Positions 4,385 to 28,055 of a stretch of 48,115 nt of DNA are shown here, in pieces. The stretch lies in the sequence record PX962436.1, one strand, 5' to 3'. The position numbers and the translations under genes are program-made. The notes beneath the pieces are model-generated. The model worked only from the letters and a program-made list of their open reading frames with translations. It had not been told where the DNA came from and made no database searches. The DNA comes from a phage. The first letter of the stretch is position 1. Every line of letters starts with the position of its first letter.

Positions 4385-4520
4385 TAGTATCGGCATAACC
4401 ACTAAACACTCTAGCCTCTGCACCTGGGTCAACTGATACGGTGCTTTGGCCGTGACAATGCTCGTAAAGATTGCCACCAGGGCGAAGGAAGAAATGACTT
4501 CGCCTCCCGTATCTGGAAAG
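4385..4520 (+). ncRNA. probable molybdenum-cofactor (Moco) riboswitch in the moaA leader
   Basis: Structured 5' leader directly upstream of moaA with conserved-looking GCCUCCC and GGAAAGG elements; boundaries approximate. Confidence 0.45.
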
Positions 4521-4526
4521 GTGTAC

Positions 4527-5516
4527 ATGGCTTCACAACTGACTGATGCATTTGCGCGTAAGTTTTACTACTTGCGCCTGTCGATTACCGATGTGTGTAA
4601 CTTTCGTTGCACCTACTGCCTGCCGGATGGGTACAAGCCGAGCGGCGTCACCAATAAAGGCTTTCTAACCGTCGATGAAATTCGCCGGGTTACGCGCGCC
4701 TTCGCCAGTCTGGGCACCGAAAAAGTGCGCCTGACAGGCGGTGAGCCGTCTTTACGCCGCGACTTTACCGATATCATCGCCGCTGTGCGAGAAAATGACG
4801 CTATCCGCCAGATTGCGGTCACCACCAATGGTTACCGTCTGGAACGCGATGTGGCGAACTGGCGCGATGCGGGACTTACTGGCATCAACGTCAGCGTTGA
4901 TAGTCTGGACGCCCGCCAGTTTCACGCTATTACCGGGCAGGATAAATTCAACCAGGTCATGGCAGGGATCGATGCTGCATTTGAGGCCGGTTTTGAGAAG
5001 GTCAAAGTCAATACCGTGCTGATGCGTGATGTGAATCATCATCAGCTCGACACTTTTCTGAACTGGATCCAGCATCGTCCCATCCAGCTGCGTTTCATCG
5101 AACTGATGGAAACGGGCGAGGGCAGCGAGCTCTTCCGTAAGCATCACATCTCTGGTCAGGTTCTGCGTGACGAGTTACTGCGTCGCGGCTGGATCCACCA
5201 ATTACGTCAACGCAGCGACGGCCCCGCGCAAGTCTTTTGTCATCCGGATTACGCCGGAGAGATTGGCCTTATCATGCCGTATGAAAAAGACTTCTGCGCC
5301 ACTTGCAACCGCCTGCGCGTTTCCTCCATTGGTAAACTCCATCTCTGCCTGTTTGGTGAAGGCGGCGTTAACCTGCGCGATCTGCTGGAAGACGATACCC
5401 AGCAACAGGCGCTGGAAGCGCGTATTTCAGCGGCGCTGCGGGAGAAGAAACAGACCCATTTCCTGCATCAAAACAACACCGGTATTACGCAAAACTTATC
5501 GTACATTGGCGGCTAA
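4527..5516 (+). CDS. moaA: GTP 3',8-cyclase MoaA (radical SAM, 329 aa)
   Basis: CNFRCTYC radical-SAM motif; start at MASQLTDAF (the ORF-track start at 4446 is an upstream extension). Confidence 0.9.
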
Positions 5517-5537
5517 AACGTCAAAAGGAGAGATCAG

Positions 5538-6050
5538 ATGAGTCAGGTAAGCACTGAATTTATCCCGACCCGTATTGCTATTCTTACGGTTTCTAATCGT
5601 TGCGGTGAAGAAGACGATACCTCCGGTCACTATCTGCGCGATTCGGCGCAAGAAGCGGGCCATCACGTTGTCGATAAAGCCATTGTGAAAGAAAACCGCT
5701 ACGCTATTCGCGCTCAGGTATCTGCGTGGATCGCCAGCGACGATGTACAAGTGGTGTTGATTACGGGGGGTACTGGCCTGACGGAAGGTGATCAGGCTCC
5801 CGAAGCACTGCTGCCGTTATTCGACCGTGAAGTTGAAGGTTTTGGTGAAGTGTTCCGGATGTTGTCGTTCGAAGAGATTGGCACTTCCACGTTGCAATCT
5901 CGAGCGGTAGCGGGCGTCGCTAACAAAACGCTGATTTTCGCCATGCCGGGTTCGACCAAAGCGTGCCGTACCGCATGGGAAAATATCATCGCGCCGCAGC
6001 TGGATGCCCGTACGCGTCCGTGTAATTTCCATCCACATTTGAAGAAATAA
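5538..6050 (+). CDS. moaB: molybdenum cofactor biosynthesis protein B
   Basis: 170 aa ORF, MogA/MoaB fold sequence, operon position. Confidence 0.9.
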
Positions 6051-6052
6051 GT

Positions 6053-6538
6053 ATGTCGCAACTGACCCATATCAACGCCGCTGGCGAAGCGCACATGGTG
6101 GATGTCTCCGCCAAAGCGGAAACCGTGCGTGAAGCGCGGGCGGAAGCCTTTGTCACCATGCGCAGCGAGACGCTGGCGATGATTATTGATGGTCGCCACC
6201 ACAAAGGCGACGTATTTGCCACTGCGCGTATTGCCGGTATTCAGGCGGCAAAACGCACCTGGGATCTGATCCCGCTGTGTCATCCGCTGATGCTCAGCAA
6301 AGTTGAAGTCAATTTACAGGCCGAGCCGGAGCACAATCGGGTGCGTATAGAAACCTTATGCCGCCTGACCGGGAAAACCGGTGTCGAAATGGAAGCGTTA
6401 ACCGCGGCCTCCGTGGCGGCGCTGACCATTTATGACATGTGCAAAGCGGTGCAAAAAGATATGGTGATTGGTCCGGTACGTTTGCTGGCGAAGAGCGGCG
6501 GCAAGTCAGGTGACTTTAAGGTGGAAGCGGATGATTAA
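6053..6538 (+). CDS. moaC: cyclic pyranopterin monophosphate synthase MoaC
   Basis: 161 aa ORF, operon position. Confidence 0.9.
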
Positions 6539-6776
6539 AGTTCTTTTTTTCGCCCAGGTGCGCGAGTTGGTGGGAACAGATGCAACCGAAGTGGCTGCGG
6601 ATTTCCCAACCGTTGAAGCGTTACGCCAACATCTGGCTGCGCAGAGCGATCGCTGGGCGCTGGCGCTGGAAGATGGCAAATTGCTGGCTGCCGTCAACCA
6701 GACGCTGGTGAGTTTTGACCATCCGCTGACTGACGGCGACGAAGTGGCTTTCTTCCCGCCGGTAACCGGAGGTTAA
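6531..6776 (+). CDS. moaD: molybdopterin synthase sulfur-carrier subunit MoaD (81 aa)
   Basis: Starts [12 protein letters not shown], ends with C-terminal GG; overlaps moaC end. Confidence 0.9.
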
Positions 6777-6777
6777 G

Positions 6778-7230
6778 ATGGCAGAAACCAAAATTGTTGT
6801 CGGCCCGCAGCCATTCAGCGTAGGAGAAGAGTATCCGTGGCTGGCGGAGCGTGATGAAGACGGTGCGGTAGTCACCTTTACCGGTAAGGTGCGCAACCAT
6901 AACCTTGGCGACAGCGTCAAAGCATTAACCCTCGAACACTATCCGGGGATGACTGAAAAAGCACTGGCAGAAATTGTCGATGAAGCGCGTAACCGCTGGC
7001 CGCTGGGGCGCGTCACGGTGATTCACCGCATCGGGGAATTATGGCCGGGCGATGAAATCGTTTTTGTCGGTGTCACCAGTGAGCACCGCAGCAGTGCGTT
7101 TGAAGCCGGGCAGTTTATTATGGATTATCTCAAAACCCGCGCACCGTTCTGGAAGCGCGAAGCCACGCCGGAAGGCGACCGCTGGGTTGAAGCTCGGGAG
7201 AGCGATCAGCAGGCGGCAAAACGCTGGTAG
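6778..7230 (+). CDS. moaE: molybdopterin synthase catalytic subunit MoaE
   Basis: 150 aa ORF, operon position. Confidence 0.9.
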   Translation: MAETKIVVGPQPFSVGEEYPWLAERDEDGAVVTFTGKVRNHNLGDSVKALTLEHYPGMTEKALAEIVDEARNRWPLGRVTVIHRIGELWPGDEIVFVGVTSEHRSSAFEAGQFIMDYLKTRAPFWKREATPEGDRWVEARESDQQAAKRW

Positions 7231-7240
7231 TTTTTTGTTA

Positions 7241-7267
7241 GCCGGATAAGGCACCGCTGCGTCCGGC
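7241..7267. repeat. REP element downstream of moaE
   Basis: GCCGGATAAGGCACCGCTGCGTCCGGC palindromic unit. Confidence 0.45.
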
Positions 7268-7365
7268 AATTTCACCGCTCAGTACATGCGTTTACGCTGC
7301 GTCGATGCACAGCCTCCTCATTTGCAGTATCCTTAAGATATTCCTTATATCTTCAGGAGATCGTC

Positions 7366-8070
7366 ATGGACAGATTCCCACGTTCTGATTCAATCGTACA
7401 ACCCCGGGCTGGCTTGCAAACTTATATGGCGCAAGTCTATGGCTGGATGACCGTTGGCTTGTTGCTGACCGCATTTGTTGCCTGGTATGCGGCTAATTCC
7501 GCGGCCGTGATGGAGCTGTTGTTCACTAACCGTGTCTTTTTAATCGGTCTGATCATCGCGCAATTAGCATTGGTTATTGTGTTATCAGCGATGATTCAAA
7601 AGCTGAGCGCAGGTGTAACGACGATGCTCTTTATGCTTTATTCGGCGCTGACGGGTCTTACGCTTTCCAGTATATTCATTGTCTATACCGCTGCTTCTAT
7701 CGCCAGTACTTTCGTCGTTACTGCCGGGATGTTCGGCGCAATGAGCCTGTACGGTTACACCACGAAGCGCGATTTAAGTGGCTTTGGCAATATGCTGTTT
7801 ATGGCGTTAATCGGCATTGTGCTGGCATCGCTGGTCAACTTCTGGCTGAAAAGCGAAGCGTTGATGTGGGCAGTCACCTACATCGGCGTGATTGTCTTTG
7901 TCGGATTGACGGCGTATGACACCCAGAAACTGAAAAATATGGGTGAGCAGATAGATACCCGCGACACGTCGAACCTGCGCAAATATTCCATTCTTGGCGC
8001 GTTAACCTTGTATCTGGACTTCATCAACCTGTTCCTGATGTTGCTGCGGATCTTCGGCAACCGCCGTTAA
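7366..8070 (+). CDS. ybhL: Bax-inhibitor-1 family inner membrane protein
   Basis: 234 aa polytopic membrane ORF at the K-12 ybhL position. Confidence 0.85.
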   Translation: MDRFPRSDSIVQPRAGLQTYMAQVYGWMTVGLLLTAFVAWYAANSAAVMELLFTNRVFLIGLIIAQLALVIVLSAMIQKLSAGVTTMLFMLYSALTGLTLSSIFIVYTAASIASTFVVTAGMFGAMSLYGYTTKRDLSGFGNMLFMALIGIVLASLVNFWLKSEALMWAVTYIGVIVFVGLTAYDTQKLKNMGEQIDTRDTSNLRKYSILGALTLYLDFINLFLMLLRIFGNRR

Positions 8071-8274
8071 TTCTTTTTCACCATCACTATCCCGGCCATG
8101 TGTCGGGATTTTTTTCTTACTAAAAACGACACTTAACAAGTACCAGGTATAAAATACGCCTTATGGCCGAGCGGAAGTGTTTTCCGTATCCATAAATACA
8201 AAAGTATTTTGTATGCGTGGTTTTAAATTTATTGATGGTGAATATTAATATTTTTTCTAAGGACAACTAAAAGA

Positions 8275-8988
8275 ATGGAATCATACTCGAAAAACAGCAA
8301 TAAATTAGATTTTCAGCACGAGGCCAGGATATTAAACGGTATATGGCTCATTACCGCTTTAGGTTTGGTGGCAACCGCAGGACTGGCCTGGGGAGCTAAG
8401 TATCTCGAAATTACGGCAACCAAATATGATTCACTACCAATGTATGTCGCCATAGGGTTATTATTACTTTGTATGTATGGCTTAAGTAAGGATATCAACA
8501 AGATAAATGCCGCCATCGCAGGCGTAATATATCTGTTTTTACTCTCTTTGGTGGCGATTGTCGTTGCAAGTTTAGTTCCTGTATATGCCATTATCATCGT
8601 GTTTAGCACTGCGGGCGCGATGTTTTTAATCAGTATGCTGGCCGGTTTATTATTTAATGTTGATCCTGGTTCTCACCGTTTTATCATTATGATGACGTTG
8701 ACAGGGTTGGCCCTGGTAATCATCGTGAATGCGGCATTAATGAGTGAACGGCCCATTTGGGTAATAAGTTGCTTAATGATTGTGTTATGGTCAGGCATTA
8801 TCTCGCATGGACGAAATAAGCTCCTTGAACTGGCGGGAAAATGCCATAGTGAAGAGTTATGGAGTCCGGTTCGTTGCGCTTTTATAGGCGCATTAACACT
8901 CTATTACTATTTTATCGGCTTCTTTGGGATACTTGCAGCAATAGCGATAACGCTTGTCTGGCAAAGGCATACGCGGTTTTTTCATTAG
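8275..8988 (+). CDS. ybhM: BI-1-like inner membrane protein
   Basis: 237 aa polytopic membrane ORF at the K-12 ybhM position. Confidence 0.8.
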   Translation: MESYSKNSNKLDFQHEARILNGIWLITALGLVATAGLAWGAKYLEITATKYDSLPMYVAIGLLLLCMYGLSKDINKINAAIAGVIYLFLLSLVAIVVASLVPVYAIIIVFSTAGAMFLISMLAGLLFNVDPGSHRFIIMMTLTGLALVIIVNAALMSERPIWVISCLMIVLWSGIISHGRNKLLELAGKCHSEELWSPVRCAFIGALTLYYYFIGFFGILAAIAITLVWQRHTRFFH

Positions 8989-9023
8989 TCGTAAATGCAC
9001 ATACTAAAGAACTTAACTAAACT

Positions 9024-9980
9024 TCACATCGCCGCTTCATTTTTCGCCCGTAGCTTCTTCGCCTGGCTTTCCAGCAACAGGTAACAGATCAGCGCCAGCA
9101 GCAGTGGGATAAAGTAATACAGCACACGGTAAGCGAGTAGGGCGGCGATAATGCTCCCTTTGGATGTATGCTCCCCAGCCAGTAGCGCGATAAACACCGC
9201 TTCCAGCACACCAATCCCCGCCGGAATATGCACGATGACGCCAGCAATACTACTAACCAGCAACACGCCCAGTACAAAGAAATAGTTCACGCTTTGACCG
9301 AGTAACAGCCAGATTATCGCTCCCATTACCATCCAGTTAACGCTGGAAATCAGCATCTGAGCGAGGGCGAATTTCCATGAAGGCAGCACCAGTTTTTGCC
9401 CTTTGATGGTCATATGGCGGTGCTTCGCGAAAGCGCAAAACCACAAATAAACCGCGATAATCGTCAGTAAGCCAATGCCGAGAATACGCAGCGTAGTTTG
9501 ATCGACATACCAGTGATCCGGCAACTCCACCACGCCTGCGGTAAAGATAATCCCTGCCAGTAAAATATAGCCCAGCCAGTTGGTGGTAATACTGAGCGAG
9601 AAAATCCGCGTAATAGTGCTGCCCGGTAACCCTAGTCGGGAGTACAAACGATAGCGCATACCAATGCCGCCGACCCAGGTACTGAGCGTCAGGTTGAAGG
9701 CGTAGCAGATAAACGACACCAGCATCACCTGGCGCTTCGCCAGTTTGTGACCGCAGTAAAAGCGGGCGAGCAGGTCATAGCAGCCGTAAATCAGATAGCT
9801 GACGACCACCAGCCCGACCGCACTAAGCAGCGCAACGCGATTGTAGTCGCGGATGACCTTCCAGACCTCTTCCCAGTCCACTTTTTTGGCGTAGACCACC
9901 AGCAACACAATCACCGCGATAAACAACAGCCAGGTGAGGATCTTCTTTGCTAAGCGCCAGCGCGGGTGTGATTTACTCAT
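9024..9980 (-). CDS. ybhN: UPF0104 inner membrane protein
   Basis: 318 aa membrane ORF, last gene of the ybhP-clsB-ybhN operon. Confidence 0.85.
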   Translation of the reverse strand: MSKSHPRWRLAKKILTWLLFIAVIVLLVVYAKKVDWEEVWKVIRDYNRVALLSAVGLVVVSYLIYGCYDLLARFYCGHKLAKRQVMLVSFICYAFNLTLSTWVGGIGMRYRLYSRLGLPGSTITRIFSLSITTNWLGYILLAGIIFTAGVVELPDHWYVDQTTLRILGIGLLTIIAVYLWFCAFAKHRHMTIKGQKLVLPSWKFALAQMLISSVNWMVMGAIIWLLLGQSVNYFFVLGVLLVSSIAGVIVHIPAGIGVLEAVFIALLAGEHTSKGSIIAALLAYRVLYYFIPLLLALICYLLLESQAKKLRAKNEAAM

Positions 9981-11221
9981 CAGGGTTTTACCCCCGTGTT
10001 TTCAGTTTCTACCCGATCCTGAGTTTCCATTGTCGGTTGTGCGGGCGGATCAACCTGCGCCAGACGTGGCGTGTGTGCCGGAAGCCAGCCAACCAGCGCC
10101 GGGAAGTGGCGTAAAAAGTGGAACGCCAGCACGCTTTTGGTCAGGTTCCACCAGGTGCGTTTGGGCAGCATGGTTTCATCCACCTGCTGACAATCTGCGG
10201 CGATAATGCCGTTCAGATTATCGCGCAGCGTCTGGTTAAAATTACGATCGTGGATGAAGACATTTGCTTCGAGATTCAGTGACAAACTGAGCGGATCGAG
10301 ATTACTGGACCCTACTGTCGCCCAGTGATCGTCCATCAATGCTACTTTGCCGTGGAGCGGGCGGCGGCGGTACTCAAACACCTGAACGCCGCCTTTAACC
10401 AGATAGTTATACAGCAAGCGCGCGCCGACTCTGACAATCGGCATATCCGGTTCGCCCTGAATGATCAGTTTGATCCGCACCCCGCGGCGTGCCGCTTTAC
10501 GCAAGGCGTGTAAAAATCGATAGCCGGGGAAGAAGTAGGCGTTGGCGATAATGACTTCCCGCCGCGCCTGAGTGAGCATTTTCAGATAGTGGCGTTCTAT
10601 ATCATCGCGGTGTTCTTCGTTATCGCGCCAGACCAGCAATACCTGCGCTTCTCCCGGCTGGCGATTTTCTTCCGCTTTGTGATGACGTCGCCACCAGCGT
10701 CGTGCCGCGCTCTGTCCAGGCAGGTTTTCCAGCTCAAACTGGAGAATATCTTCGACAATCGGCCCTTCAAGGCGTACCGCGTAATCCTGTTTAGCCTCTG
10801 GACCGTAGCTGGACATATGCTCGGCGGAGTAATTCAGCCCGCCAATAAAGGCGATACGCGCGTCGATCACCACAATTTTGCGATGCATCCGGCGAAACAC
10901 ATTGGTGCGCATACCAAAAAGGCGAGGGCGGGGATCGTAGTAGCGAAATACCACGCCAGCTGCCGTCAGTTCATTGACAAACTCATCGCTGAGATCCGGC
11001 GAACCGTAGCCATCCAGCAAGACTTCCGCTTTAACCCCGCGTTGCGCTGCTGCCAGTAGTGCCGCATGCAGCTGTTTGCCGACGTCATCCTCAAACCAGA
11101 TAAACGTTTCAAGAATGATGCGTTCTTGTGCCTCGCCAATCGCCTTAAACACCGCGGGATAATATTGCTCGCCGTTTTCCAGCAACTCGATCTTATTGCC
11201 TTCACGCCAGCTACATTTCAT
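9980..11221 (-). CDS. clsB: cardiolipin synthase B (phospholipase D family)
   Basis: 413 aa ORF with two HxK(x4)D motifs ([17 protein letters not shown]). Confidence 0.9.
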
Positions 11222-11979
11222 AAATGAATCTCCGCACTTAAAGGGGCATGATCAGAAAGGTGTCGCCATGTCTGCAGCGGCAACGCGGTTGGCGCGCTGG
11301 CGCTGGCATTTTTGACGTAGATCCTGTCCAGACGTAGTAGAGGAAATTGCACCGGAAACGTGCGCGCCGGGCGTCCGTGGGCGCGGGTAAATATCTCATC
11401 CAGTCCGGCCTGCACTTTTAACGGATGATTAGCTTTTTGCCGCCAGTCATTGAAATCACCCGCCACCAATACCGGTTCGCCGTCCGGTAGCTCATTCACC
11501 CATTCGGCGAGCATCGCAAGCTGCGCCTGACGGTGCGCCTCACGCAGGCCCAGATGTACGCACATCACATGAATCGCTTTTCCGGTCATCGGCGGCACAA
11601 TGCGGCAGTAGAGCACGCCGCGCTTTTCCGCACCATCGACCGAAACATCGCGATTCTCATAATGTTCAATGGGATAACGTGAAAGAACCGCGTTACCGTG
11701 ATGCCCTTCCGGGTATACGGCATTGCGACCGTAGGCAAAATCGCTCCACATGGTGTCGGCGAGAAACTCGTAGTGCGAGGTATCGGGCCAGTTTTCCACA
11801 TGCAGCGGATGAACTTCGTGCGCGCCCATCACTTCCTGCAGGCAAACAATATCGGCGCTGACGGTACGCACGGCATCGCGAAGTTCCGGCAAAATGAAGC
11901 GTCGGTTAAACGCGGTAAAGCCTTTGTGAATGTTGATGGTGAGCACCTTGAACGAAAATTGTTGTGTTTGATCGGGCAT
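11218..11979 (-). CDS. ybhP: endonuclease/exonuclease/phosphatase family protein
   Basis: 253 aa ORF, EEP-fold sequence, operon position. Confidence 0.85.
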
Positions 11980-12111
11980 AATTTTCCTGTCTTTGCCTCT
12001 TATCTCATTGAAATAGTGTAGTCGGCGTCACAAAAAGGTGCGGTCTTACGGAATTTTCCGTAAAGTTCGGTACTCTGAGTAAGTAGAGATAAATTCTTCA
12101 GGAGAGAAGCC

Positions 12112-12522
12112 ATGAAGTGGCAACAACGTGTTCGTGTCGCAACGGGTCTAAGTTGCTGGCAGATTATGTTGCATTTACTGGTAGTGGCGCTGCTGGTGGT
12201 GGGCTGGATGAGTAAGACTCTGGTTCACGTCGGCGTGGGATTATGCGCACTGTATTGTGTCACGGTAGTGATGATGCTGGTGTTTCAGCGCCACCCCGAG
12301 CAACGCTGGCGTGAGGTGGCAGACGTGCTGGAAGAGCTGACCACGACCTGGTATTTTGGCGCAGCGCTGATTGTGCTGTGGCTGTTGTCCCGCGTTCTGG
12401 AAAACAACTTTTTGCTGGCAATTGCAGGGCTGGCAATCCTTGCCGGCCCGGCGGTAGTGTCTTTGCTGGCGAAAGATAAGAAGTTACATCACCTTACGTC
12501 TAAACATCGCGTACGCCGCTGA
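12112..12522 (+). CDS. ybhQ: inner membrane protein
   Basis: 136 aa hydrophobic ORF at the K-12 ybhQ position. Confidence 0.8.
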
Positions 12523-13590
12523 CCCTGTCGTGGCCGTTATCACCAGTAGCGGCCACAAACTATTCCACACAATATCCAGACTCGCATCCTTCAAATAAAT
12601 CTGCTTGGTAATGTCCGTAAAGTGGCGAATAGGGTTAATCCACGTCAGGTTTTGCAGCCAAACTGGCATGTTTTCCACCGGCGAAACGTAACCGGAAAGG
12701 AGAATGGCGGGCATCATAAAGACAAACACGCCGATAAACGCCTGCTGTTGTGTCGAGCAGAGTGATGAAATCAACAGACCGAATCCCACCAGCGATAAAC
12801 CGTAAATCACCATCGTAAAGTAGAACAGCGCCAGCGATCCGGCGAAGGGGATTTGATACGCCCAGATACCAATCGCCAGCACAATGGTGGCCTGGAAGGT
12901 GGCGACAATTAACGCCGGTACGGCTTTGCCGATGAAGATCTGCCAGGTGGTGAGCGGCGAAACCAGTAGCTGATCGAGCGTACCTTGTTCACGTTCGCGG
13001 GCGACGGAAAGTGAAGTGACGATCATTACGCCGATAGTGGTGATCATGGCGATCAGCGACGGCACCACAAACCATTTGTAGTCGAGATTCGGGTTATACC
13101 AGTTGCGTACTACCAGCTCGCTGTTGTTAGGTTTCGGTTTTCCTTCCAGCAGCTCCTGCTGATAATTTTTGACGATCTGTTGCAGGTAGTTGGCGGCAAT
13201 TTGCGCACTGTTGGAGTTACGCCCGTCGAGGATCAACTGCAACGGCGCGGTCTGGAAGGTATCCAGTTTGCGCGAGAAGTCAGCCGGGAAACGCACCAGG
13301 AGTAACGCCTTTTGTGTGTCGATGGTCGGGCGGATCTCCTGTGGGCTTTTCAGCAGCAGCACATGTGTAAAGGCGCTGGCGCGGGCAAAACGTTGAGTAA
13401 GTTCCACCGAATGCTCGCCGTTATCTTCATCGTAGATGGCGATGGTGGCGTTAGTCACTTCCAGCGTGGCGGCGAACGGGAACAGGATCACCTGAATTAG
13501 CACGGGTAAAATCAGAATCGCGCGGGTTTGTGGTTCGCGCAGCAACGACTGCAACTCTTTGCGGATTAACGTCCATAAGCGATGAAACAT
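12484..13590 (-). CDS. ybhR: ABC-2 type transporter permease
   Basis: 368 aa polytopic ORF, ybhFSR operon. Confidence 0.85.
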
Positions 13591-13600
13591 GCTCTTCTCC

Positions 13601-14734
13601 CTAATCCAGCCGACGTTTGGTTTTCAGCCACGTCAGGCCGATAAACATCACCGCCGAAGCGATCAAAAACAGCACGTTTACCACCAGCACCACTGGAATA
13701 TTCCCGGCGAGGAACAGGCTTTGCAGGGTGCTGACGAAATAACGAGCGGGAATAATGTACGTCACCGCGCGGATCACCGCGGGCATACTGTCGATCTGAA
13801 AAATAAAGCCGGAAAGCATAATCGACGGCAGAAAAGCCGCGTTCAGAGCGACCTGAGCGGCATTGAACTGGTTGCGGGTTATCGTGGAAATCAGCAGCCC
13901 CATCCCCAGGGTACTGAGTAAAAACAGGCTGGAGATAAAAAACAGAATCAGCAGCGACCCGCGATACGGCACGCCGAGAATAAACACTGACACCAGCATA
14001 CACAGCAACATCGCCAGCATCCCGAGAAAGTAATAAGGGATCAGCTTACACAGCAGCAGTTCCGTGCGGGTAATCTCCGTAGAGAGCAGAGCCTCCATGG
14101 TGCCGCGTTCCCATTCTCGCGCCACCACCAGCGAGGTGAGAATCGCGCCGATGACCGTCATGATGATGGTCACCGCACCCGGGATAATAAAGTGCTGGCT
14201 TATCGCCGCCGGGTTAAACCAGTAGCGGGTTTGTACATCAATAAGCGGTTCAAAAGTCTGCCCGTTGTCCTCCGCTCGCTGCATTTGCCAGATCTGCCAG
14301 ATCCCTTCGACATACCCCTGCACAAAGTTAGCGGTATTCGGCTCACTGCCGTCGGTGATCACCTGAATCGGTGCGGTGGCGTTGGCGCGCTCCATCTGTT
14401 CCGCAAAATCCACCGGAATAACCACCAGACCGCGAATTTTCCCCGCCTGCATTTTGGCGATCAGTTCCTGACGGTTATCGCTGATGGTGGCGTCGATGTA
14501 GGGCGAACCGGTCATGGTGTGGGTGAAATCCAGCGCCGCTTCGCTACGCTGTTCCAGTAAAATCCCGACCCGCAGCTTGCTGGAGTCGAGGTTAATGCCG
14601 TAACCAAAAATAAACAGCAGTAGCAGCGGGATCACTACCGCAATCAGCCAGCTACTCGGATCGCGAACGATCTGCCGCGTCTCTTTAACGCACAGCGCCC
14701 GTACGCGACGCCAGGACAGGATCGGGTTACTCAT
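13601..14734 (-). CDS. ybhS: ABC-2 type transporter permease
   Basis: 377 aa polytopic ORF, ybhFSR operon. Confidence 0.85.
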
Positions 14735-15725
14735 TGCTATGCTCCTTATCCCAGTCGTGGATCAACTGAATAAAGGCTTGCTCCATGGTGGGATCGGGTT
14801 GCTCGTCGTTGGCCGACTGCGCTTTCAAATCATCCGGCGTGCCGCTGGCAATTAATTTCCCACGGTACACCAGGCCGATGCGGTCGCAATATTCTGCTTC
14901 ATCCATAAAGTGAGTGGTGACCATCACCGTGACGCCTTTCTCTACCATGCTGTTGATATGCAGCCAAAATTCGCGGCGGGTGAGGGGATCAACGCCGGAC
15001 GTTGGTTCGTCGAGAAACAGAATGTCCGGTTCATGCATCAGCGAACAGGCCAGCGCCAGCCGCTGTTTAAAACCTAATGGCAGTTCATCGGTCGCGTGGG
15101 AGGCGATACTTTTCAGGCCAAATGCCTCGCTCATACGGGAGATTTTTTCGTTCTGCGCCCGACCGCGTAAGCCATACACACCAGAGAAAAAGCGTAAATT
15201 CTGTTCGACCGTCAGGTTGCCGTAGAGCGAAAATTTTTGCGCCATATAGCCGAGATGCTGGCGCGCTTTACCGGAACTCTCTTTCAGATCCATCCCCAGC
15301 ACCAGCGCCTGGCCGGAAGTCGGCACCAGCAAACCGCACATCATCTTAAAGGTGGTCGATTTACCCGCGCCGTTTGGCCCCAGCAAACCAAAAATCTCCC
15401 CACGTTTAACGGCAAAGTTGACGTGATCGGTGGCGGCAAAATCACCAAATTTCTTGGTCAGTTCTTTCGCTTCGATCACCGTCTCGCCGGGTGTGCCTTC
15501 TACCGTATGCAATATTGCACCCAGCGGCGATTCTGAGGTTCCGGCACCACCCAGCAAATCAATAAACGCATCTTCAAAACGCGGCGTAGTTTCGTTGATG
15601 TTGATTTCCGGCATCCCGTCGGCATGGCGAATATCGTCTGGTGTGGCCTCTTTTTTGAGGATCAGACGTACCGATTTCCCCTGAATCATGCCGTCGCTGA
15701 CCTGCGGCAGTTTCAAGGCGCGGTG
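14727..15725 (-). pseudogene. ybhF: 5'-truncated ABC transporter ATPase: only the second ABC domain and linker remain; the 5' limit is approximate
   Basis: Minus-strand translation has one complete ABC domain (Walker A GPNGAGKST, signature, Walker B) preceded by the C-terminal tail of a first domain (FEDAFIDLLGG); the rest of the 523-codon ORF (15730..16298) is antisense to the methylase. Confidence 0.75.
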
Positions 15726-15729
15726 AAAC

Positions 15730-16655
15730 CCAACGGTTGGGACAATCAGTGGAAAGGGGACGAAGATTACCTGAAGTGGCTGGACCACTGTCTGGCTCAG
15801 TTCTGGCGGGTGCTGAAACCTGCCGGAAGCCTTTACCTGTTCTGTGGACATCGCCTCGCATCTGATATCGAGATCATGATGCGTGAACGTTTCAACGTTC
15901 TTAACCATATTATCTGGGCGAAGCCGTCCGGACGATGGAACGGGTGTAATAAAGAAAGTCTGCGCGCATATTTTCCCGCAACAGAACGCGTTCTGTTTGC
16001 TGAACATTACCAGGGACCATATCGCGGCAAAAGTGACGGCTATGCGGCAAAAGAAAGTCAACTCAAACAGCACATAATGGCACCGCTGATTTCGTATTTC
16101 AGGGATGCTCGTGCCGAACTGGGTATAACGGCAAAACAGATTGCCGAAGCCACTGGTAAGAAAAATATGGTTTCCCACTGGTTTGGTGCCAGTCAGTGGC
16201 AGTTGCCGAATGAGGCTGACTACCGGAAGTTGCAGGCACTGTTTTCCCGTATAGCGGCAGAGAAATTTCAGGAACAACAACTGGAACAACCACACCACCA
16301 GCTGGTGGCATCTTATGATTCACTGAATCGCAAATATTCTGAATTGCTGGATGAGTTTAAAACTCTCCGGCGCTATTTCTCCGTATCAGTTTCCGTGCCT
16401 TATACCGACGTCTGGACGCATAAACCCGTTCAGTTCTACCCGGGTAAACATCCGTGTGAGAAGCCCGCGGATATGCTCCGGCAAATAATCAGTGCCAGTA
16501 GTCGACAAGGCGATCTGGTTGCTGATTTCTTTATGGGATCCGGTTCCACAATAAAAGCGGCAATGGCGCTGGGGCGTCGGGCGTTAGGTGTTGAACTTGA
16601 GTCAGAGCGGTTTAATCAGACGGTGAAAGAGGTAAGTGAACTGGTGGGGAAATAA
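15730..16655 (+). pseudogene. phage N6-adenine/N4-cytosine DNA methyltransferase, 5'-truncated at the host-phage junction
   Basis: C-terminal FxGxG motif (DFFMGSGST) and W-rich region (GWDNQWKGDEDYLKWL) are present, but the DPPY catalytic motif expected just upstream is replaced by ybhF antisense sequence. Confidence 0.6.
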
Positions 16656-16731
16656 TTCTGGTGGCCACGTTGCGTGGCCTTTTTATTTCCAACACAGCAC
16701 CCGCAAATATCGCGAGGTGAGAGATGACGAA

Positions 16732-17067
16732 ATGCCTCATAACCCAAATACCTGGCCGGACTGGCTGGAGTTGTTTCAGAGCTGGTGGCGTGGAGATACG
16801 CCGCTGGGCGCAGTGATTATGTCGATTGTTATGGCTGGTTTGCGCATCGCCTATTTTGGCGGTGGTGGTGGCTGGAAGCGAAAAACGCTCGAGATTTTGC
16901 TATGTGGCGCTCTGACGTTGACCTTTGCATCCGCGCTTGAGTATGTCGGATGGCCTAAATCGCTTTCTGTTGCCATTGGTGGTGGGGTGGGGCTGATCGG
17001 TGTCGATGCTATTCGTGGGGCTGCAATGAGAGTAATCGGTAACAAGTTTGGTAGCTCGAAGGAGTAA
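16732..17067 (+). CDS. phage holin (not lambda S), about 112 aa with three predicted transmembrane segments
   Basis: Sits immediately upstream of the endolysin; hydrophobic segments and a GGGGG loop; GAGGTGA SD-like sequence before ATG 16732; the ORF-track start at 16636 overlaps the methylase end. Confidence 0.6.
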   Translation: MPHNPNTWPDWLELFQSWWRGDTPLGAVIMSIVMAGLRIAYFGGGGGWKRKTLEILLCGALTLTFASALEYVGWPKSLSVAIGGGVGLIGVDAIRGAAMRVIGNKFGSSKE

Positions 17068-17070
17068 TTT

Positions 17071-17547
17071 ATGCAGGTACTAAATTCCCAGCGTAAAGCT
17101 TTCCTGGATATGGTTGCATGGTCAGAAGGAACTGATAACGGACGTCAGAAAACCAGAAATCATGGTTATGACGTCATTGTAGGCGGAGAGCTATTCACTG
17201 ATTACTCCGATCACCCTCGCAAACTTGTCACGCTAAACCCAAAACTCAAATCAACAGGCGCCGGACGCTACCAGCTTCTTTCCCGTTGGTGGGATGCCTA
17301 CCGCAAGCAGCTTGGCCTGAAAGACTTCTCTCCGAAAAGTCAGGACGCTGTGGCATTGCAGCAGATTAAGGAGCGTGGCGCTTTACCTATGATTGATCGT
17401 GGTGATATCCGTCAGGCAATCGACCGTTGCAGCAATATCTGGGCTTCACTGCCGGGCGCTGGTTATGGTCAGTTCGAGCATAAGGCTGACAGCCTGATTG
17501 CAAAATTCAAAGAAGCGGGCGGAACGGTCAGAGAGATTGATGTATGA
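17071..17547 (+). CDS. R: endolysin (lambda R-type lytic transglycosylase); the first ~15 codons are non-lambda, the remainder matches lambda R
   Basis: Translation matches lambda R from QRKAFLDM to the end, but the N-terminus reads MQVLNS (lambda: MVEINN) and residue 15 is V (lambda: L). Confidence 0.9.
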
Positions 17548-18005
17548 GCAGAGTCACCGCGATTATCTCCGCTCTGGTTATCTGCATCATCGTCTGCCTG
17601 TCATGGGCTGTTAATCATTACCGTGATAACGCCATTACCTACAAAGCCCAGCGCGACAAAAATGCCAGAGAACTGAAGCTGGCGAACGCGGCAATTACTG
17701 ACATGCAGATGCGTCAGCGTGATGTTGCTGCGCTCGATGCAAAATACACGAAGGAGTTAGCTGATGCTAAAGCTGAAAATGATGCTCTGCGTGATGATGT
17801 TGCCGCTGGTCGTCGTCGGTTGCACATCAAAGCAGTCTGTCAGTCAGTGCGTGAAGCCACCACCGCCTCCGGCGTGGATAATGCAGCCTCCCCCCGACTG
17901 GCAGACACCGCTGAACGGGATTATTTCACCCTCAGAGAGAGGCTGATCACTATGCAAAAACAACTGGAAGGAACCCAGAAGTATATTAATGAGCAGTGCA
18001 GATAG
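17544..18005 (+). CDS. Rz: spanin inner-membrane subunit Rz
   Basis: 153 aa ORF at lambda 45966..46427 by map offset. Confidence 0.9.
17764..17946 (+). CDS. Rz1: spanin outer-membrane lipoprotein Rz1, nested in Rz in the +1 frame
   Basis: 60 aa ORF with lipobox (VVVGC) and proline-rich region, embedded in Rz. Confidence 0.85.
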
Positions 18006-18036
18006 AGCTGACCATATCGATGGGCAACTCATGCAA

Positions 18037-18330
18037 TTATTTTGAGCAATACACACGCGCTTCCAGCGGAGTATAAATGCCTAAAGTAATAAAACCGAGC
18101 AATCCATTTACGAATGTTTGCTGGGTTTCTGTTTTAACAACATTTTCTGCGCCGCCACAAATTTTAGCTGCATCGACAGTTTTCTTCTGCCCAATTCCAG
18201 AAACGAAGAAATGATGGGTGATGGTTTCCTTTGGTGCTACTGCTGCCGGTTTGTTTTGAACAGTAAACGTCTGTTGAGCACATCCTGTAATAAGCAGGGC
18301 CAGCGCAGTAGCGAGTAGCATTTTTTTCAT
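18037..18330 (-). CDS. bor: Bor lipoprotein (serum-resistance-type lysogenic conversion protein)
   Basis: 97 aa, lipobox LITGC; matches lambda Bor. Confidence 0.9.
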   Translation of the reverse strand: MKKMLLATALALLITGCAQQTFTVQNKPAAVAPKETITHHFFVSGIGQKKTVDAAKICGGAENVVKTETQQTFVNGLLGFITLGIYTPLEARVYCSK

Positions 18331-18619
18331 GGTGTTATTCCCGATGCTTTTTGAAGTTCGCAGAATCGTATGTGTAGAAAATTAAACAAACCCTAAACAA
18401 TGAGTTGAAATTTCATATTGTTAATATTTATTAATGTATGTCAGGTGCGATGAATCGTCATTGTATTCCCGGATTAACTATGTCCACAGCCCTGACGGGG
18501 AACTTCTCTGCGGGAGTGTCCGGGAATAATTAAAACGATGCACACAGGGTTTAGCGCGTACACGTATTGCATTATGCCAACGCCCCGGTGCTGACACGGA
18601 AGAAACCGGACGTTATGAT

Positions 18620-19153
18620 TTAGCGTGGAAAGATTTGTGTAGTGTTCTGAATGCTCTCAGTAAATAGTAATGAATTATCAAAGGTATAGTAATATCTTTT
18701 ATGTTCATGGATATTTGTAACCCATCGGAAAACTCCTGCTTTAGCAAGATTTTCCCTGTATTGCTGAAATGTGATTTCTCTTGATTTCAACCTATCATAG
18801 GACGTTTCTATAAGATGCGTGTTTCTTGAGAATTTAACATTTACAACCTTTTTAAGTCCTTTTATTAACACGGTGTTATCGTTTTCTAACACGATGTGAA
18901 TATTATCTGTGGCTAGATAGTAAATATAATGTGAGACGTTGTGACGTTTTAGTTCAGAATAAAACAATTCACAGTCTAAATCTTTTCGCACTTGATCGAA
19001 TATTTCTTTAAAAATGGCAACCTGAGCCATTGGTAAAACCTTCCATGTGATACGAGGGCGCGTAGTTTGCATTATCGTTTTTATCGTTTCAATCTGGTCT
19101 GACCTCCTTGTGTTTTGTTGATGATTTATGTCAAATATTAGGAATGTTTTCAC
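18620..19153 (-). CDS. lambda right-end hypothetical protein
   Basis: 177 aa ORF in the lambda-identical segment between bor and cos. Confidence 0.5.
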
Positions 19154-19315
19154 TTAATAGTATTGGTTGCGTAACAAAGTGCGGTCCTGCTGGCATTCTG
19201 GAGGGAAATACAACCGACAGATGTATGTAAGGCCAACGTGCTCAAATCTTCATACAGAAAGATTTGAAGTAATATTTTAACCGCTAGATGAAGAGCAAGC
19301 GCATGGAGCGACAAA

Positions 19316-19522
19316 ATGAATAAAGAACAATCTGCTGATGATCCCTCCGTGGATCTGATTCGTGTAAAAAATATGCTTAATAGCACCATTTCTATGAGTT
19401 ACCCTGATGTTGTAATTGCATGTATAGAACATAAGGTGTCTCTGGAAGCATTCAGAGCAATTGAGGCAGCGTTGGTGAAGCACGATAATAATATGAAGGA
19501 TTATTCCCTGGTGGTTGACTGA
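19316..19522 (+). CDS. lambda right-end hypothetical protein (68 aa)
   Basis: ORF in the lambda-identical segment. Confidence 0.4.
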
Positions 19523-19686
19523 TCACCATAACTGCTAATCATTCAAACTATTTAGTCTGTGACAGAGCCAACACGCAGTCTGTCACTGTCAGGAAAGTGG
19601 TAAAACTGCAACTCAATTACTGCAATGCCCTCGTAATTAAGTGAATTTACAATATCGTCCTGTTCGGAGGGAAGAACGCGGGATGT

Positions 19687-19881
19687 TCATTCTTCATCAC
19701 TTTTAATTGATGTATATGCTCTCTTTTCTGACGTTAGTCTCCGACGGCAGGCTTCAATGACCCAGGCTGAGAAATTCCCGGACCCTTTTTGCTCAAGAGC
19801 GATGTTAATTTGTTCAATCATTTGGTTAGGAAAGCGGATGTTGCGGGTTGTTGTTCTGCGGGTTCTGTTCTTCGTTGACAT
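19687..19881 (-). CDS. lambda right-end hypothetical protein (64 aa)
   Basis: ORF in the lambda-identical segment. Confidence 0.4.
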   Translation of the reverse strand: MSTKNRTRRTTTRNIRFPNQMIEQINIALEQKGSGNFSAWVIEACRRRLTSEKRAYTSIKSDEE

Positions 19882-20039
19882 GAGGTTGCCCCGTATTCAG
19901 TGTCGCTGATTTGTATTGTCTGAAGTTGTTTTTACGTTAAGTTGATGCAGATCAATTAATACGATACCTGCGTCATAATTGATTATTTGACGTGGTTTGA
20001 TGGCCTCCACGCACGTTGTGATATGTAGATGATAATCAT

Positions 20040-20260
20040 TATCACTTTACGGGTCCTTTCCGGTGATCCGACAGGTTACGGGGCGGCGACCTCGCGGGTT
20101 TTCGCTATTTATGAAAATTTTCCGGTTTAAGGCGTTTCCGTTCTTCTTCGTCATAACTTAATGTTTTTATTTAAAATACCCTCTGAAAAGAAAGGAAACG
20201 ACAGGTGCTGAAAGCGAGCTTTTTGGCCTCTGTCGTTTCCTTTCTCTGTTTTTGTCCGTG
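20040..20260 (+). other. lambda cos (cosQ-cosN-cosB) in the ligated/circular form; cosN 12-nt overhang GGGCGGCGACCT at 20081..20092
   Basis: Lambda right-end sequence ...CCGACAGGTTACG runs directly into the left-end sequence GGGCGGCGACCTCGCGGGTTTTCGCTATTTATGAAAATTTTCCGG. Confidence 0.9.
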
Positions 20261-20269
20261 GAATGAACA

Positions 20270-20789
20270 ATGGAAGTCAACAAAAAGCAGCTGGCTGACA
20301 TTTTCGGTGCGAGTATCCGTACCATTCAGAACTGGCAGGAACAGGGAATGCCCGTTCTGCGAGGCGGTGGCAAGGGTAATGAGGTGCTTTATGACTCTGC
20401 CGCCGTCATAAAATGGTATGCCGAAAGGGATGCTGAAATTGAGAACGAAAAGCTGCGCCGGGAGGTTGAAGAACTGCGGCAGGCCAGCGAGGCAGATCTC
20501 CAGCCAGGAACTATTGAGTACGAACGCCATCGACTTACGCGTGCGCAGGCCGACGCACAGGAACTGAAGAATGCCAGAGACTCCGCTGAAGTGGTGGAAA
20601 CCGCATTCTGTACTTTCGTGCTGTCGCGGATCGCAGGTGAAATTGCCAGTATTCTCGACGGGCTCCCCCTGTCGGTGCAGCGGCGTTTTCCGGAACTGGA
20701 AAACCGACATGTTGATTTCCTGAAACGGGATATCATCAAAGCCATGAACAAAGCAGCCGCGCTGGATGAACTGATACCGGGGTTGCTGA

Positions 20790-20815
<26 letters not shown>
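20270..20815 (+). CDS. Nu1: terminase small subunit
   Basis: MEVNKKQLADIFGASIRTIQNWQEQGMP matches lambda Nu1. Confidence 0.95.
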
Positions 20816-24496
<3,681 letters not shown>

Positions 24497-24516
<20 letters not shown>

Positions 24517-25816
24517 TCTCCCGCATATTGCCAGCATGGCCTTTAATGAGCCGCTGATGCTTGAACCCGCCTATGCGCGGGTTTTCTTTTGTGCGCTTGC
24601 AGGCCAGCTTGGGATCAGCAGCCTGACGGATGCGGTGTCCGGCGACAGCCTGACTGCCCAGGAGGCACTCGCGACGCTGGCATTATCCGGTGATGATGAC
24701 GGACCACGACAGGCCCGCAGTTATCAGGTCATGAACGGCATCGCCGTGCTGCCGGTGTCCGGCACGCTGGTCAGCCGGACGCGGGCGCTGCAGCCGTACT
24801 CGGGGATGACCGGTTACAACGGCATTATCGCCCGTCTGCAACAGGCTGCCAGCGATCCGATGGTGGACGGCATTCTGCTCGATATGGACACGCCCGGCGG
24901 GATGGTGGCGGGGGCATTTGACTGCGCTGACATCATCGCCCGTGTGCGTGACATAAAACCGGTATGGGCGCTTGCCAACGACATGAACTGCAGTGCAGGT
25001 CAGTTGCTTGCCAGTGCCGCCTCCCGGCGTCTGGTCACGCAGACCGCCCGGACAGGCTCCATCGGCGTCATGATGGCTCACAGTAATTACGGTGCTGCGC
25101 TGGAGAAACAGGGTGTGGAAATCACGCTGATTTACAGCGGCAGCCATAAGGTGGATGGCAACCCCTACAGCCATCTTCCGGATGACGTCCGGGAGACACT
25201 GCAGTCCCGGATGGACGCAACCCGCCAGATGTTTGCGCAGAAGGTGTCGGCATATACCGGCCTGTCCGTGCAGGTTGTGCTGGATACCGAGGCTGCAGTG
25301 TACAGCGGTCAGGAGGCCATTGATGCCGGACTGGCTGATGAACTTGTTAACAGCACCGATGCGATCACCGTCATGCGTGATGCACTGGATGCACGTAAAT
25401 CCCGTCTCTCAGGAGGGCGAATGACCAAAGAGACTCAATCAACAACTGTTTCAGCCACTGCTTCGCAGGCTGACGTTACTGACGTGGTGCCAGCGACGGA
25501 GGGCGAGAACGCCAGCGCGGCGCAGCCGGACGTGAACGCGCAGATCACCGCAGCGGTTGCGGCAGAAAACAGCCGCATTATGGGGATACTCAACTGTGAG
25601 GAGGCTCACGGACGCGAAGAACAGGCACGCGTGCTGGCAGAAACCCCCGGTATGACCGTGAAAACGGCCCGCCGCATTCTGGCCGCAGCACCACAGAGTG
25701 CACAGGCGCGCAGTGACACTGCGCTGGATCGTCTGATGCAGGGGGCACCGGCACCGCTGGCTGCAGGTAACCCGGCATCTGATGCCGTTAACGATTTGCT
25801 GAACACACCAGTGTAA
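24497..25816 (+). CDS. C: head maturation protease/scaffold C (GTG start)
   Basis: 439 codons from GTG 24497 (MTAELRNLPHIASMAF); the ORF-track start at 24362 is an upstream extension. Confidence 0.85.
25211..25816 (+). CDS. Nu3: scaffolding protein Nu3, in-frame internal start within C
   Basis: Met at C codon 239, at the lambda Nu3 map position. Confidence 0.7.
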   Translation: MDATRQMFAQKVSAYTGLSVQVVLDTEAAVYSGQEAIDAGLADELVNSTDAITVMRDALDARKSRLSGGRMTKETQSTTVSATASQADVTDVVPATEGENASAAQPDVNAQITAAVAAENSRIMGILNCEEAHGREEQARVLAETPGMTVKTARRILAAAPQSAQARSDTALDRLMQGAPAPLAAGNPASDAVNDLLNTPV

Positions 25817-25825
25817 GGGATGTTT

Positions 25826-26158
25826 ATGACGAGCAAAGAAACCTTTACCCATTACCAGCCGCAGGGCAACAGTGACCCGGCTCATACCGCAACCGCGCCC
25901 GGCGGATTGAGTGCGAAAGCGCCTGCAATGACCCCGCTGATGCTGGACACCTCCAGCCGTAAGCTGGTTGCGTGGGATGGCACCACCGACGGTGCTGCCG
26001 TTGGCATTCTTGCGGTTGCTGCTGACCAGACCAGCACCACGCTGACGTTCTACAAGTCCGGCACGTTCCGTTATGAGGATGTGCTCTGGCCGGAGGCTGC
26101 CAGCGACGAGACGAAAAAACGGACCGCGTTTGCCGGAACGGCAATCAGCATCGTTTAA
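25826..26158 (+). CDS. D: head decoration protein D
   Basis: 110 aa, [20 protein letters not shown]. Confidence 0.9.
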
Positions 26159-26213
26159 CTTTACCCTTCATCACTAAAGGCCGCCTGTGCGGCTTTTTTT
26201 ACGGGATTTTTTT

Positions 26214-27239
26214 ATGTCGATGTACACAACCGCCCAACTGCTGGCGGCAAATGAGCAGAAATTTAAGTTTGATCCGCTGTTTCTGCGTCTCTTTTTCCGT
26301 GAGAGCTATCCCTTCACCACGGAGAAAGTCTATCTCTCACAAATTCCGGGACTGGTAAACATGGCGCTGTACGTTTCGCCGATTGTTTCCGGTGAGGTTA
26401 TCCGTTCCCGTGGCGGCTCCACCTCTGAATTTACGCCGGGATATGTCAAGCCGAAGCATGAAGTGAATCCGCAGATGACCCTGCGTCGCCTGCCGGATGA
26501 AGATCCGCAGAATCTGGCGGACCCGGCTTACCGCCGCCGTCGCATCATCATGCAGAACATGCGTGACGAAGAGCTGGCCATTGCTCAGGTCGAAGAGATG
26601 CAGGCAGTTTCTGCCGTGCTTAAGGGCAAATACACCATGACCGGTGAAGCCTTCGATCCGGTTGAGGTGGATATGGGCCGCAGTGAGGAGAATAACATCA
26701 CGCAGTCCGGCGGCACGGAGTGGAGCAAGCGTGACAAGTCCACGTATGACCCGACCGACGATATCGAAGCCTACGCGCTGAACGCCAGCGGTGTGGTGAA
26801 TATCATCGTGTTCGATCCGAAAGGCTGGGCGCTGTTCCGTTCCTTCAAAGCCGTCAAGGAGAAGCTGGATACCCGTCGTGGCTCTAATTCCGAGCTGGAG
26901 ACAGCGGTGAAAGACCTGGGCAAAGCGGTGTCCTATAAGGGGATGTATGGCGATGTGGCCATCGTCGTGTATTCCGGACAGTACGTGGAAAACGGCGTCA
27001 AAAAGAACTTCCTGCCGGACAACACGATGGTGCTGGGGAACACTCAGGCACGCGGTCTGCGCACCTATGGCTGCATTCAGGATGCGGACGCACAGCGCGA
27101 AGGCATTAACGCCTCTGCCCGTTACCCGAAAAACTGGGTGACCACCGGCGATCCGGCGCGTGAGTTCACCATGATTCAGTCAGCACCGCTGATGCTGCTG
27201 GCTGACCCTGATGAGTTCGTGTCCGTACAACTGGCGTAA
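26214..27239 (+). CDS. E: major capsid protein E
   Basis: 341 aa from MSMYTTAQLLAANEQ. Confidence 0.9.
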   Translation: MSMYTTAQLLAANEQKFKFDPLFLRLFFRESYPFTTEKVYLSQIPGLVNMALYVSPIVSGEVIRSRGGSTSEFTPGYVKPKHEVNPQMTLRRLPDEDPQNLADPAYRRRRIIMQNMRDEELAIAQVEEMQAVSAVLKGKYTMTGEAFDPVEVDMGRSEENNITQSGGTEWSKRDKSTYDPTDDIEAYALNASGVVNIIVFDPKGWALFRSFKAVKEKLDTRRGSNSELETAVKDLGKAVSYKGMYGDVAIVVYSGQYVENGVKKNFLPDNTMVLGNTQARGLRTYGCIQDADAQREGINASARYPKNWVTTGDPAREFTMIQSAPLMLLADPDEFVSVQLA

Positions 27240-27280
27240 TCATGGCCCTTCGGGGCCATTGTTTCTCTGTGGAGGAGTCC

Positions 27281-27679
27281 ATGACGAAAGATGAACTGAT
27301 TGCCCGTCTCCGCTCGCTGGGTGAACAACTGAACCGTGATGTCAGCCTGACGGGGACGAAAGAAGAACTGGCGCTCCGTGTGGCAGAGCTGAAAGAGGAG
27401 CTTGATGACACGGATGAAACTGCCGGTCAGGACACCCCTCTCAGCCGGGAAAATGTGCTGACCGGACATGAAAATGAGGTGGGATCAGCGCAGCCGGATA
27501 CCGTGATTCTGGATACGTCTGAACTGGTCACGGTCGTGGCACTGGTGAAGCTGCATACTGATGCACTTCACGCCACGCGGGATGAACCTGTGGCATTTGT
27601 GCTGCCGGGAACGGCGTTTCGTGTCTCTGCCGGTGTGGCAGCCGAAATGACAGAGCGCGGCCTGGCCAGAATGCAATAA
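27281..27679 (+). CDS. FI: DNA packaging protein FI
   Basis: 132 aa from MTKDELIARL. Confidence 0.85.
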   Translation: MTKDELIARLRSLGEQLNRDVSLTGTKEELALRVAELKEELDDTDETAGQDTPLSRENVLTGHENEVGSAQPDTVILDTSELVTVVALVKLHTDALHATRDEPVAFVLPGTAFRVSAGVAAEMTERGLARMQ

Positions 27680-27690
27680 CGGGAGGCGCT

Positions 27691-28044: not shown

Positions 28045-28055
28045 AAGGGGGATGT

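Follow-up and report, generated by a model that had tools for sequence, protein, structure and literature searches.

Anatomy of the 48,115-bp unit

Sequence record PX962436.1, a phage entry of 48,115 nucleotides (by "the window" we mean this whole stretch at its full length), joins a truncated copy of the Escherichia coli gene ybhF to a piece of a lambdoid lysis module in which the endolysin gene R is a hybrid of two parental alleles. The listing of open reading frames (ORFs), together with similarity searches, divides the window into three consecutive blocks: E. coli B host DNA, a foreign lambdoid piece, and the DE3 prophage followed by further host DNA (Table 1). The host block (positions 1-15722) reproduces BL21(DE3) (NC_012971.2) from 796511 to 812232 but for one base, at 3667, and the foreign block (15722-17132) matches prophages of E. 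coli strains 14EC001, H7 and E89 at 100% identity. In the third block, identity is 100% both to the DE3 prophage (EU078592), over positions 17128-42925, and to BL21(DE3), over positions 42926-48115, which run up to chromosomal position 796510.

Because the last base of the window is BL21(DE3) position 796510 and the first is 796511, two bases that adjoin in BL21(DE3), the window forms a single closed unit, 48,115 bp long, which, judging by its sequence, is a circle, a linear molecule running from cos to cos, or a single repeat of a tandem duplication. Within this unit the DE3 arm, the att core and the host genes from ybhB and bio through to ybhF are uninterrupted, collinear and identical with BL21(DE3), with 20,897 bp of host DNA lying between attR and the joint in ybhF (junction A). 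An earlier sequence-only reading, made from the bases and their translations, had proposed that an exchange between two copies of R, about 20 kb past attB, would excise this very unit or duplicate it, and both the adjoining ends (796510/796511) and the distance from attR to the joint bear out that geometry.

The length of the unit is 99% of that of lambda (48,502 bp). Lambda packages DNA of about 78-105% of 48.5 kb, a range that includes 48,115 bp; with its single cos and a length inside these established limits, the unit has the form of a transducing genome. It does not have that of a viable lambdoid phage, which would carry an origin and replication genes, immunity, Q and a late promoter: according to the ORF map and annotation, int through Q, ori, the immunity region, the early genes and pR' are absent from the unit, and only host DNA, a methylase fragment and the holin gene S lie to the left of 17128. 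Positions 41109-42175 hold the DE3-specific deletion of the b region, which fuses and extends orf-314 and ea59; as a result, lambda matches this arm in two pieces and DE3 in one, identifying the late arm as that of DE3 rather than of wild-type lambda.

Table 1. Features of the window, with positions counted from its first base
Feature	Position	Strand	Remarks
Host DNA: bioD 3' part, uvrB, ybhK, moaABCDE, ybhL, ybhM, ybhN, clsB, ybhP, ybhQ, ybhR, ybhS, ybhF'	1..15722	+	
Sole base difference from BL21(DE3) in 46.7 kb	3667	-	A for T (+ strand); YbhK D155V
Truncated ybhF	14727..15722	-	C-terminal 331 codons and stop kept; N-terminal 247 codons, with first ABC domain, lost
Junction A	15720..15725		Host identity to 15722, foreign identity from 15722, 1-nt overlap (G); three-way alignment and base-by-base comparison
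Phage N6/N4 DNA methyltransferase, 3' 310 codons	15723..16655	+	First 40 codons, including DPPY motif, lost
Intrinsic terminator-like hairpin and T-run, between methylase and S	16663..16689	+	7 pairs, 6 of them G-C
Holin S, lambda holin family, foreign allele	16732..17067	+	PF05106, E = 2.5e-27, profile positions 2-99 of 99
Hybrid endolysin gene R	17071..17547	+	Codons 1-19 foreign allele; from codon 20 on, DE3/lambda R
Junction B, crossover interval GGAAC	17128..17132		Codon 20 of R; first identity block of R-Rz-bor homology
DE3 right part: R, Rz, bor, cos, nu1-A...J, lom, stf, deleted b region	17128..42925	+	100% EU078592, same coordinates
cosN	20081..20092	+	Sole cos of the unit
att core GCTTTTTTATACTAA (attR)	42926..42940	+	Single copy in the unit
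Host DNA right of attR: ybhB, bioA, bioB, bioF, bioC, bioD 5' part	42941..48115	+	Identical to BL21(DE3)

The foreign segment and its two junctions

Junction A interrupts two genes at one point. The sequence-only reading had placed the common truncation of ybhF and the methyltransferase gene near 15,700-15,740, and alignment to both parents now sets it at 15722/15723, where ybhF loses its first ABC domain and the methylase its DPPY motif. YbhF, which serves as tandem ABC ATPase in the YbhFSR transporter, is intact in BL21(DE3), where it has 578 amino acids and two ABC_tran domains, one of which is left in the 331-residue remnant. The parental methylase (350 amino acids in 14EC001) reads ...I-V-T-D-P-P-Y-F-K / V-K-P..., with the cut two codons past DPPY. 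What remains matches PF01555 only at profile positions 20-220, which falls short of a complete catalytic domain, and because its first 40 codons with the DPPY motif are missing, the fragment is presumably inactive.

Around junction A, the in-register similarity of the two parents is 8/20 and not significant; with a 1-nt overlap, the joint reads as illegitimate and effectively independent of homology, as had been supposed. It connects host to phage DNA without site-specific or extended homology, in the manner of a transducing genome, although on the phage side the partner is not DE3 but a foreign lambdoid phage. A heptamer, TTCAAGG, occurs a short way to the left of the joint in both parents (window 15713-15719; 14EC001 prophage locus 5994-6000), displaced by 4-5 nt. 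It may be the trace of slipped microhomology pairing, or chance; as it is out of register and the in-register similarity is so low, we dropped a microhomology origin of junction A through TTCAAGG as a chance resemblance.

Between the two junctions lie 1.4 kb comprising the methylase fragment, holin S and the first 19 codons of R. The sequence-only reading had called this part non-lambda, up to roughly codon 15 of R, and it is in fact the allele of the 14EC001, H7 and E89 prophages, with 94-95% identity over 15722-17132 to phages mEp460_4F5 and SfV. The foreign S, which matches the lambda holin family over its full length and is annotated in 14EC001 as "phage holin, lambda family", aligns poorly with the S of DE3. 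A terminator is annotated in SfV at the equivalent place, in the gap between methylase and S. No promoter-like site was found in 15200-17300, the part upstream of S included, and a strong terminator precedes S.

The presence of these genes beside ybhF had been attributed to a second lysis module native to that site. We looked for such a module, but ybhF is intact in BL21(DE3), flanked by hlyD and cecR, and a search of 5,426 complete E. coli genomes did not find the junction. DLP12, a prophage resident in BL21(DE3), has essD-rrrD and not a methylase with a lambda-type holin, and no B-lineage genome is among the matches of at least 98.3% identity to the segment. Given the intact ybhF, the essD-rrrD of DLP12 and a 100% identity found only in prophages of unrelated wild strains, the 1.4-kb segment is foreign to the B strain.

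In 14EC001, the prophage that contains the donor module (NZ_CP024127.1, 4002073-4015951) is DLP12-like, with ninE', ybcO, rusA, ylcG, quuD and a porin gene, and its left side is cut by an IS3 element beside a truncated tssM. It has a terminase of the HNH/P27 type and a portal of the HK97 type, and such a donor would therefore not package from a lambda cos.

Within R, the last base specific to the foreign parent is at 17127 and the first specific to DE3 at 17133, after which the window does not differ from DE3 as far as 42925. The change of parentage in R, previously estimated at about 17,116, is thereby refined through base-by-base comparison to 17128-17132, and R is neither uniformly lambda nor uniformly non-lambda. 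DE3 and the foreign parent are homologous from 17128 to approximately 18300 (~1.17 kb, covering R, Rz and bor) at 95-96% identity, with identity blocks that measure, in order, 5, 11, 50 and 44 nt and reach 201 nt; to the left of 17128 the parents differ at 10/40 positions and then become unalignable. The switch falls in the first of these blocks, at the extreme edge of the homology, a placement that, on the alignment, is atypical of simple homologous (RecA-type) recombination. Of the earlier proposal of a simple homologous recombination in R, the extent of the homology and the geometry stand, but the use of a 5-nt edge block despite blocks of up to 201 nt does not fit.

The codon for residue 19 of R (GAA, just left of the crossover, window 17125-17130) encodes what we take to be the catalytic Glu19 of the lambda endolysin. 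The hybrid R keeps Glu19, differs from lambda R at only a few N-terminal residues and is probably functional.

Neither junction was found in the 5,426 complete E. coli genomes (which include about 80 DE3 or B strains), in 50,697 phage records or in 72,556 plasmids. Junction A was also absent from IMG/VR, JGI metagenome contigs and GTDB species genomes, as was the 45-mer that spans the junction B crossover from IMG/VR, JGI metagenomes and GTDB genomes, although for this 45-mer the negative in IMG/VR is weak, since the corresponding 45-mer of the foreign parent is missing there too. Exact-protein look-up among 153 billion gene positions gave no record of either the hybrid R protein or the fusion ORF. 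With neither junction, nor the hybrid R, nor the fusion ORF present in the collections searched, the combination of the two junctions is not a chance pattern.

Junction B might instead have been inherited, as part of a natural mosaic in which a foreign S is followed by a lambda-identical R. However, the best match to the stretch from methylase to Rz among complete E. coli genomes and phage records is 98.5%, and each of the 99 IMG/VR contigs that has this S allele carries an R whose 3' part departs from lambda at 32 or more of 420 bases; we therefore ruled out an inherited mosaic of this kind. The lack of any natural carrier of the hybrid R indicates that the foreign module was joined to a DE3-identical R recently (or by artefact). 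Separately, in three IMG/VR loci with this S allele (L013, L104 and L106), Rz is near that of lambda (8/458 differences) and the 3' part of R is 9% different, evidence that natural mosaics have other boundaries within the lysis cassette as well.

Possible routes to the unit

The parentage of the three segments, both joints and the closure around a single cos are read directly from the sequence; how they came together is a matter of interpretation. Our preferred reading, to which we give an even chance, is that of a helper-dependent transducing or duplication unit resembling lambda dbio, derived from BL21(DE3) through one illegitimate and one annealing-type event; phage DN1, described below, sets a precedent for it. 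The DE3 prophage encodes exo, bet and gam and keeps its full late region, but its int is disrupted, so that it cannot excise. A wild lambdoid phage would have met BL21(DE3), and a fragment of this phage, broken in the methylase gene, would have been end-joined without homology to a chromosomal break in ybhF. The other side of the fragment would have annealed to DE3 across the R-Rz-bor homology, presumably through single-strand annealing of the lambda Red type: the heteroduplex would span the whole homology, flaps would be trimmed at its edges, and after replication one daughter would retain all DE3 alleles to the edge. DE3 alleles throughout, up to the very edge of the homology, are thus the expected product of single-strand annealing. 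Either order of events is compatible with such a route, in that an insertion at ybhF or a hybrid prophage could have formed first, followed by illegitimate or homologous excision. Lambda is known to swap its R-Rz-cos-nu1-A region with resident prophages, mainly via Red, with tolerance of divergence and with stimulation to the left of the cut at cos (De Paepe et al., 2014; PMC3945230).

In tandem or concatemeric form, such DNA could be cut from cos to cos and packaged by lambda terminase from an induced DE3 or a helper; with its late region intact, DE3 itself could supply both terminase and capsids. At 99% of lambda, the length of the unit is consistent with selection through packaging from cos to cos. 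Because the unit has no ori, immunity, Q or late promoter, and a terminator stands before S, it would travel passively and depend on a helper, as an extreme specialized transducing genome of the lambda dbio type, carrying bio-uvrB-moa-ybhLMN-clsB-ybhPQRS, for which encapsidation and marker transfer are predicted. Integration into a chromosome would turn it into a tandem duplication of 48 kb.

The homology in R would also allow for a sequence of events in which packaging plays no part. A foreign lambdoid prophage or fragment could first have entered the ybhF gene of a strain derived from BL21(DE3), and ordinary recombination between the two R genes, 48 kb apart and in direct orientation, could then have produced the circle or tandem duplication. 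The geometry of such an exchange is exact, ~1.17 kb of R-Rz-bor homology at 95-96% would suffice for it, and it invokes as many events as the preferred reading. However, no genome shows such an insertion, a random insertion would have had only a 0.1-0.2% chance, by our estimate, of falling at a packageable distance and in the right orientation, and a RecA-type exchange would not be expected in a 5-nt block given blocks of 50-201 nt. We regard this course of events as unlikely.

The edge position of the crossover could also have been generated by computation. If junction A is real, with foreign phage DNA sitting in ybhF of a DE3 lysogen, then junction B and the circularity might reflect an assembler or cycle-finder that walked through a collapsed R-Rz-bor repeat and output the 48 kb cycle of the graph as though it were a circular phage. 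A collapsed-repeat consensus would place the switch exactly where it is, at the point at which the R sequences become alignable, and would account for the exclusive presence of DE3 alleles throughout the downstream repeat, while the register of the coordinates with the DE3 reference (see below) implies reference-aware processing. Against this, a de Bruijn path would retain the foreign alleles at 17133 and 17145 until the first shared k-mer block (50 nt, 17146-17195), which the window does not; two chromosomal copies of equal depth would be polished to a mixed consensus and not to clean DE3; and an artefact does not predict that the length of the unit matches the packaging size of lambda. A short-read de Bruijn chimera at R was set aside as unlikely on the first of these grounds, and a computational junction B in general strikes us as quite unlikely.

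Several points nevertheless weigh against a helper-dependent transducing or duplication unit. The sequence is in none of the collections searched, and as physical joints both junctions are putative. Little DNA that has neither replication nor late expression would be expected in a lysate, and reaching the abundance needed for sequencing as a clean 48 kb unit would seem to call for selection, as a transductant or a duplication. Consensus-building over a collapsed repeat can also give a crossover in a 5-nt block flanked by mismatches. The terminase of a 14EC001-type donor is not of the lambda type, and packaging would have to depend on DE3 functions. Finally, window positions 17128-42925 are numerically the same as the GenBank coordinates of DE3, with a non-DE3 left part (17,127 bases) as long as the left arm of DE3 that it replaces; this register indicates that the sequence was either rotated to, or built on, the frame of the DE3 record, and hence that it underwent some human or software processing.

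Such processing raises the question of whether the sequence as a whole is chimeric, stemming from library molecules or reads of a mixed sample (BL21(DE3) with wild E. coli or a phage) or composed in silico on a DE3/BL21(DE3) frame. The absence of the sequence from every database searched would be explained, as would a left part of exactly the length of the replaced arm, all DE3 coordinates being preserved, and a junction A that is essentially without homology. Yet it would take a large coincidence for two independent joins to close a lambda-sized, single-cos unit with one of them at the edge of a homology, and rotating a real circle to the reference would by itself make the coordinates agree. 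None of the best-matching complete E. coli genomes has the base responsible for YbhK D155V, and the variant protein is unrecorded by exact-protein look-up; this private, non-synonymous single-nucleotide polymorphism is easier to explain if the data come from a real clone than if reference sequences had been pasted together. There is, in addition, a close real precedent in Escherichia phage DN1. We hold a chimeric origin of the entire sequence to be very unlikely.

If, as in the preferred reading, a wild lambdoid phage did form a bridge to the excision-locked DE3, a further consequence can be imagined, which we put forward as a speculation that is probably wrong. The bridge would have placed a second cos one head-length downstream, such that packaging in situ could export 21 kb of chromosome along with the full set of lambda structural genes. 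This would represent a route for cos phages to mobilisation resembling lateral transduction, an escape route for DE3 genes, and a "giant natural cosmid" that rides on a helper with neither ori nor promoter.

Relation to known transducing phages and lysis modules

Specialized transduction, marker exchange between prophages, and lambda-bio phages derived from DE3 (DN1) are already known, and the unit is no new type of genetic system. Classical lambda bio and lambda dbio phages, which arise by aberrant (Campbell) excision, likewise consist of an attR-side prophage arm with contiguous bio-side host DNA that replaces the other end of the prophage, and they too have an illegitimate joint and a size limited by cos-to-cos packaging; this anatomy of classical lambda specialized transducing genomes is established. 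In those genomes the joint connects host DNA to the same prophage, whereas in the unit it was supplied by a third party, a wild lambdoid phage, and the deletion (all of int through Q) is far more extreme than in a plaque-forming lambda bio.

The nearest relative is Escherichia phage DN1 (MF374379.1), a DE3-derived lambda-bio phage from the lysate of a recombinant BL21(DE3) culture. It resembles the unit in its DE3 parent, its host arm (attR-ybhB-bioABFCD-uvrB-ybhK), its illegitimate joint between host and phage, its single cos and its packageable size. The DN1 joint connects moaA (BL21 position 801365) to DE3's own position 11407 across a 5-nt microhomology, GTGGC (DN1 32886-32890), as opposed to the 1-nt overlap seen here. 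The host DNA of DN1 extends over 10 kb and stops in moaA, against 20.9 kb up to ybhF in the unit. DN1 keeps imm21, O, P, Q, pR' and S-R and is viable at 41.6 kb, whereas the unit lost all early and regulatory functions. Unlike DN1, it has a foreign phage fragment as its joint and a second, homologous junction in R.

The exchange at junction B has a close counterpart in the work of De Paepe et al. (2014; PMC3945230), in which infecting lambdoid phages recombined with resident prophages within the R-Rz-bor/cos homology. Their recombinants were viable phages formed by two homologous exchanges, whereas in the unit one side is homologous and the other illegitimate, with a crossover at the edge of the homology. 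Searching the literature for this molecule and for DE3-derived transducing particles turned up nothing relevant other than that study.

The order methylase-terminator-S-R is that of DLP12-type and lambdoid modules of the form Q-(porin)-methylase-S-R-Rz-bor (14EC001, H7, E89; mEp460, SfV, cdtI). In these modules, a full-length methylase of 350 amino acids with DPPY follows Q and the late promoter, and R belongs to the foreign allele over its entire length, with a divergence of 6% or more from lambda; the unit, by contrast, has a truncated methylase and an R that is lambda-identical from codon 20.

If the molecule is real, recombination with a wild lambdoid phage could mobilise the int-disrupted DE3, supposedly fixed in place, and the chromosomal genes next to it, and one illegitimate and one annealing-type homologous event could jointly make a packageable unit. 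The outermost margin of a diverged homology would then also be a site at which crossovers can occur, a point of interest for the way in which the boundaries of phage mosaics arise and are used again. On the practical side, these considerations concern phage contamination and the containment of BL21(DE3) cultures.

The host segment also contains a molybdenum-cofactor riboswitch (4395-4539) upstream of moaA, which is as annotated in BL21(DE3) and ordinary.

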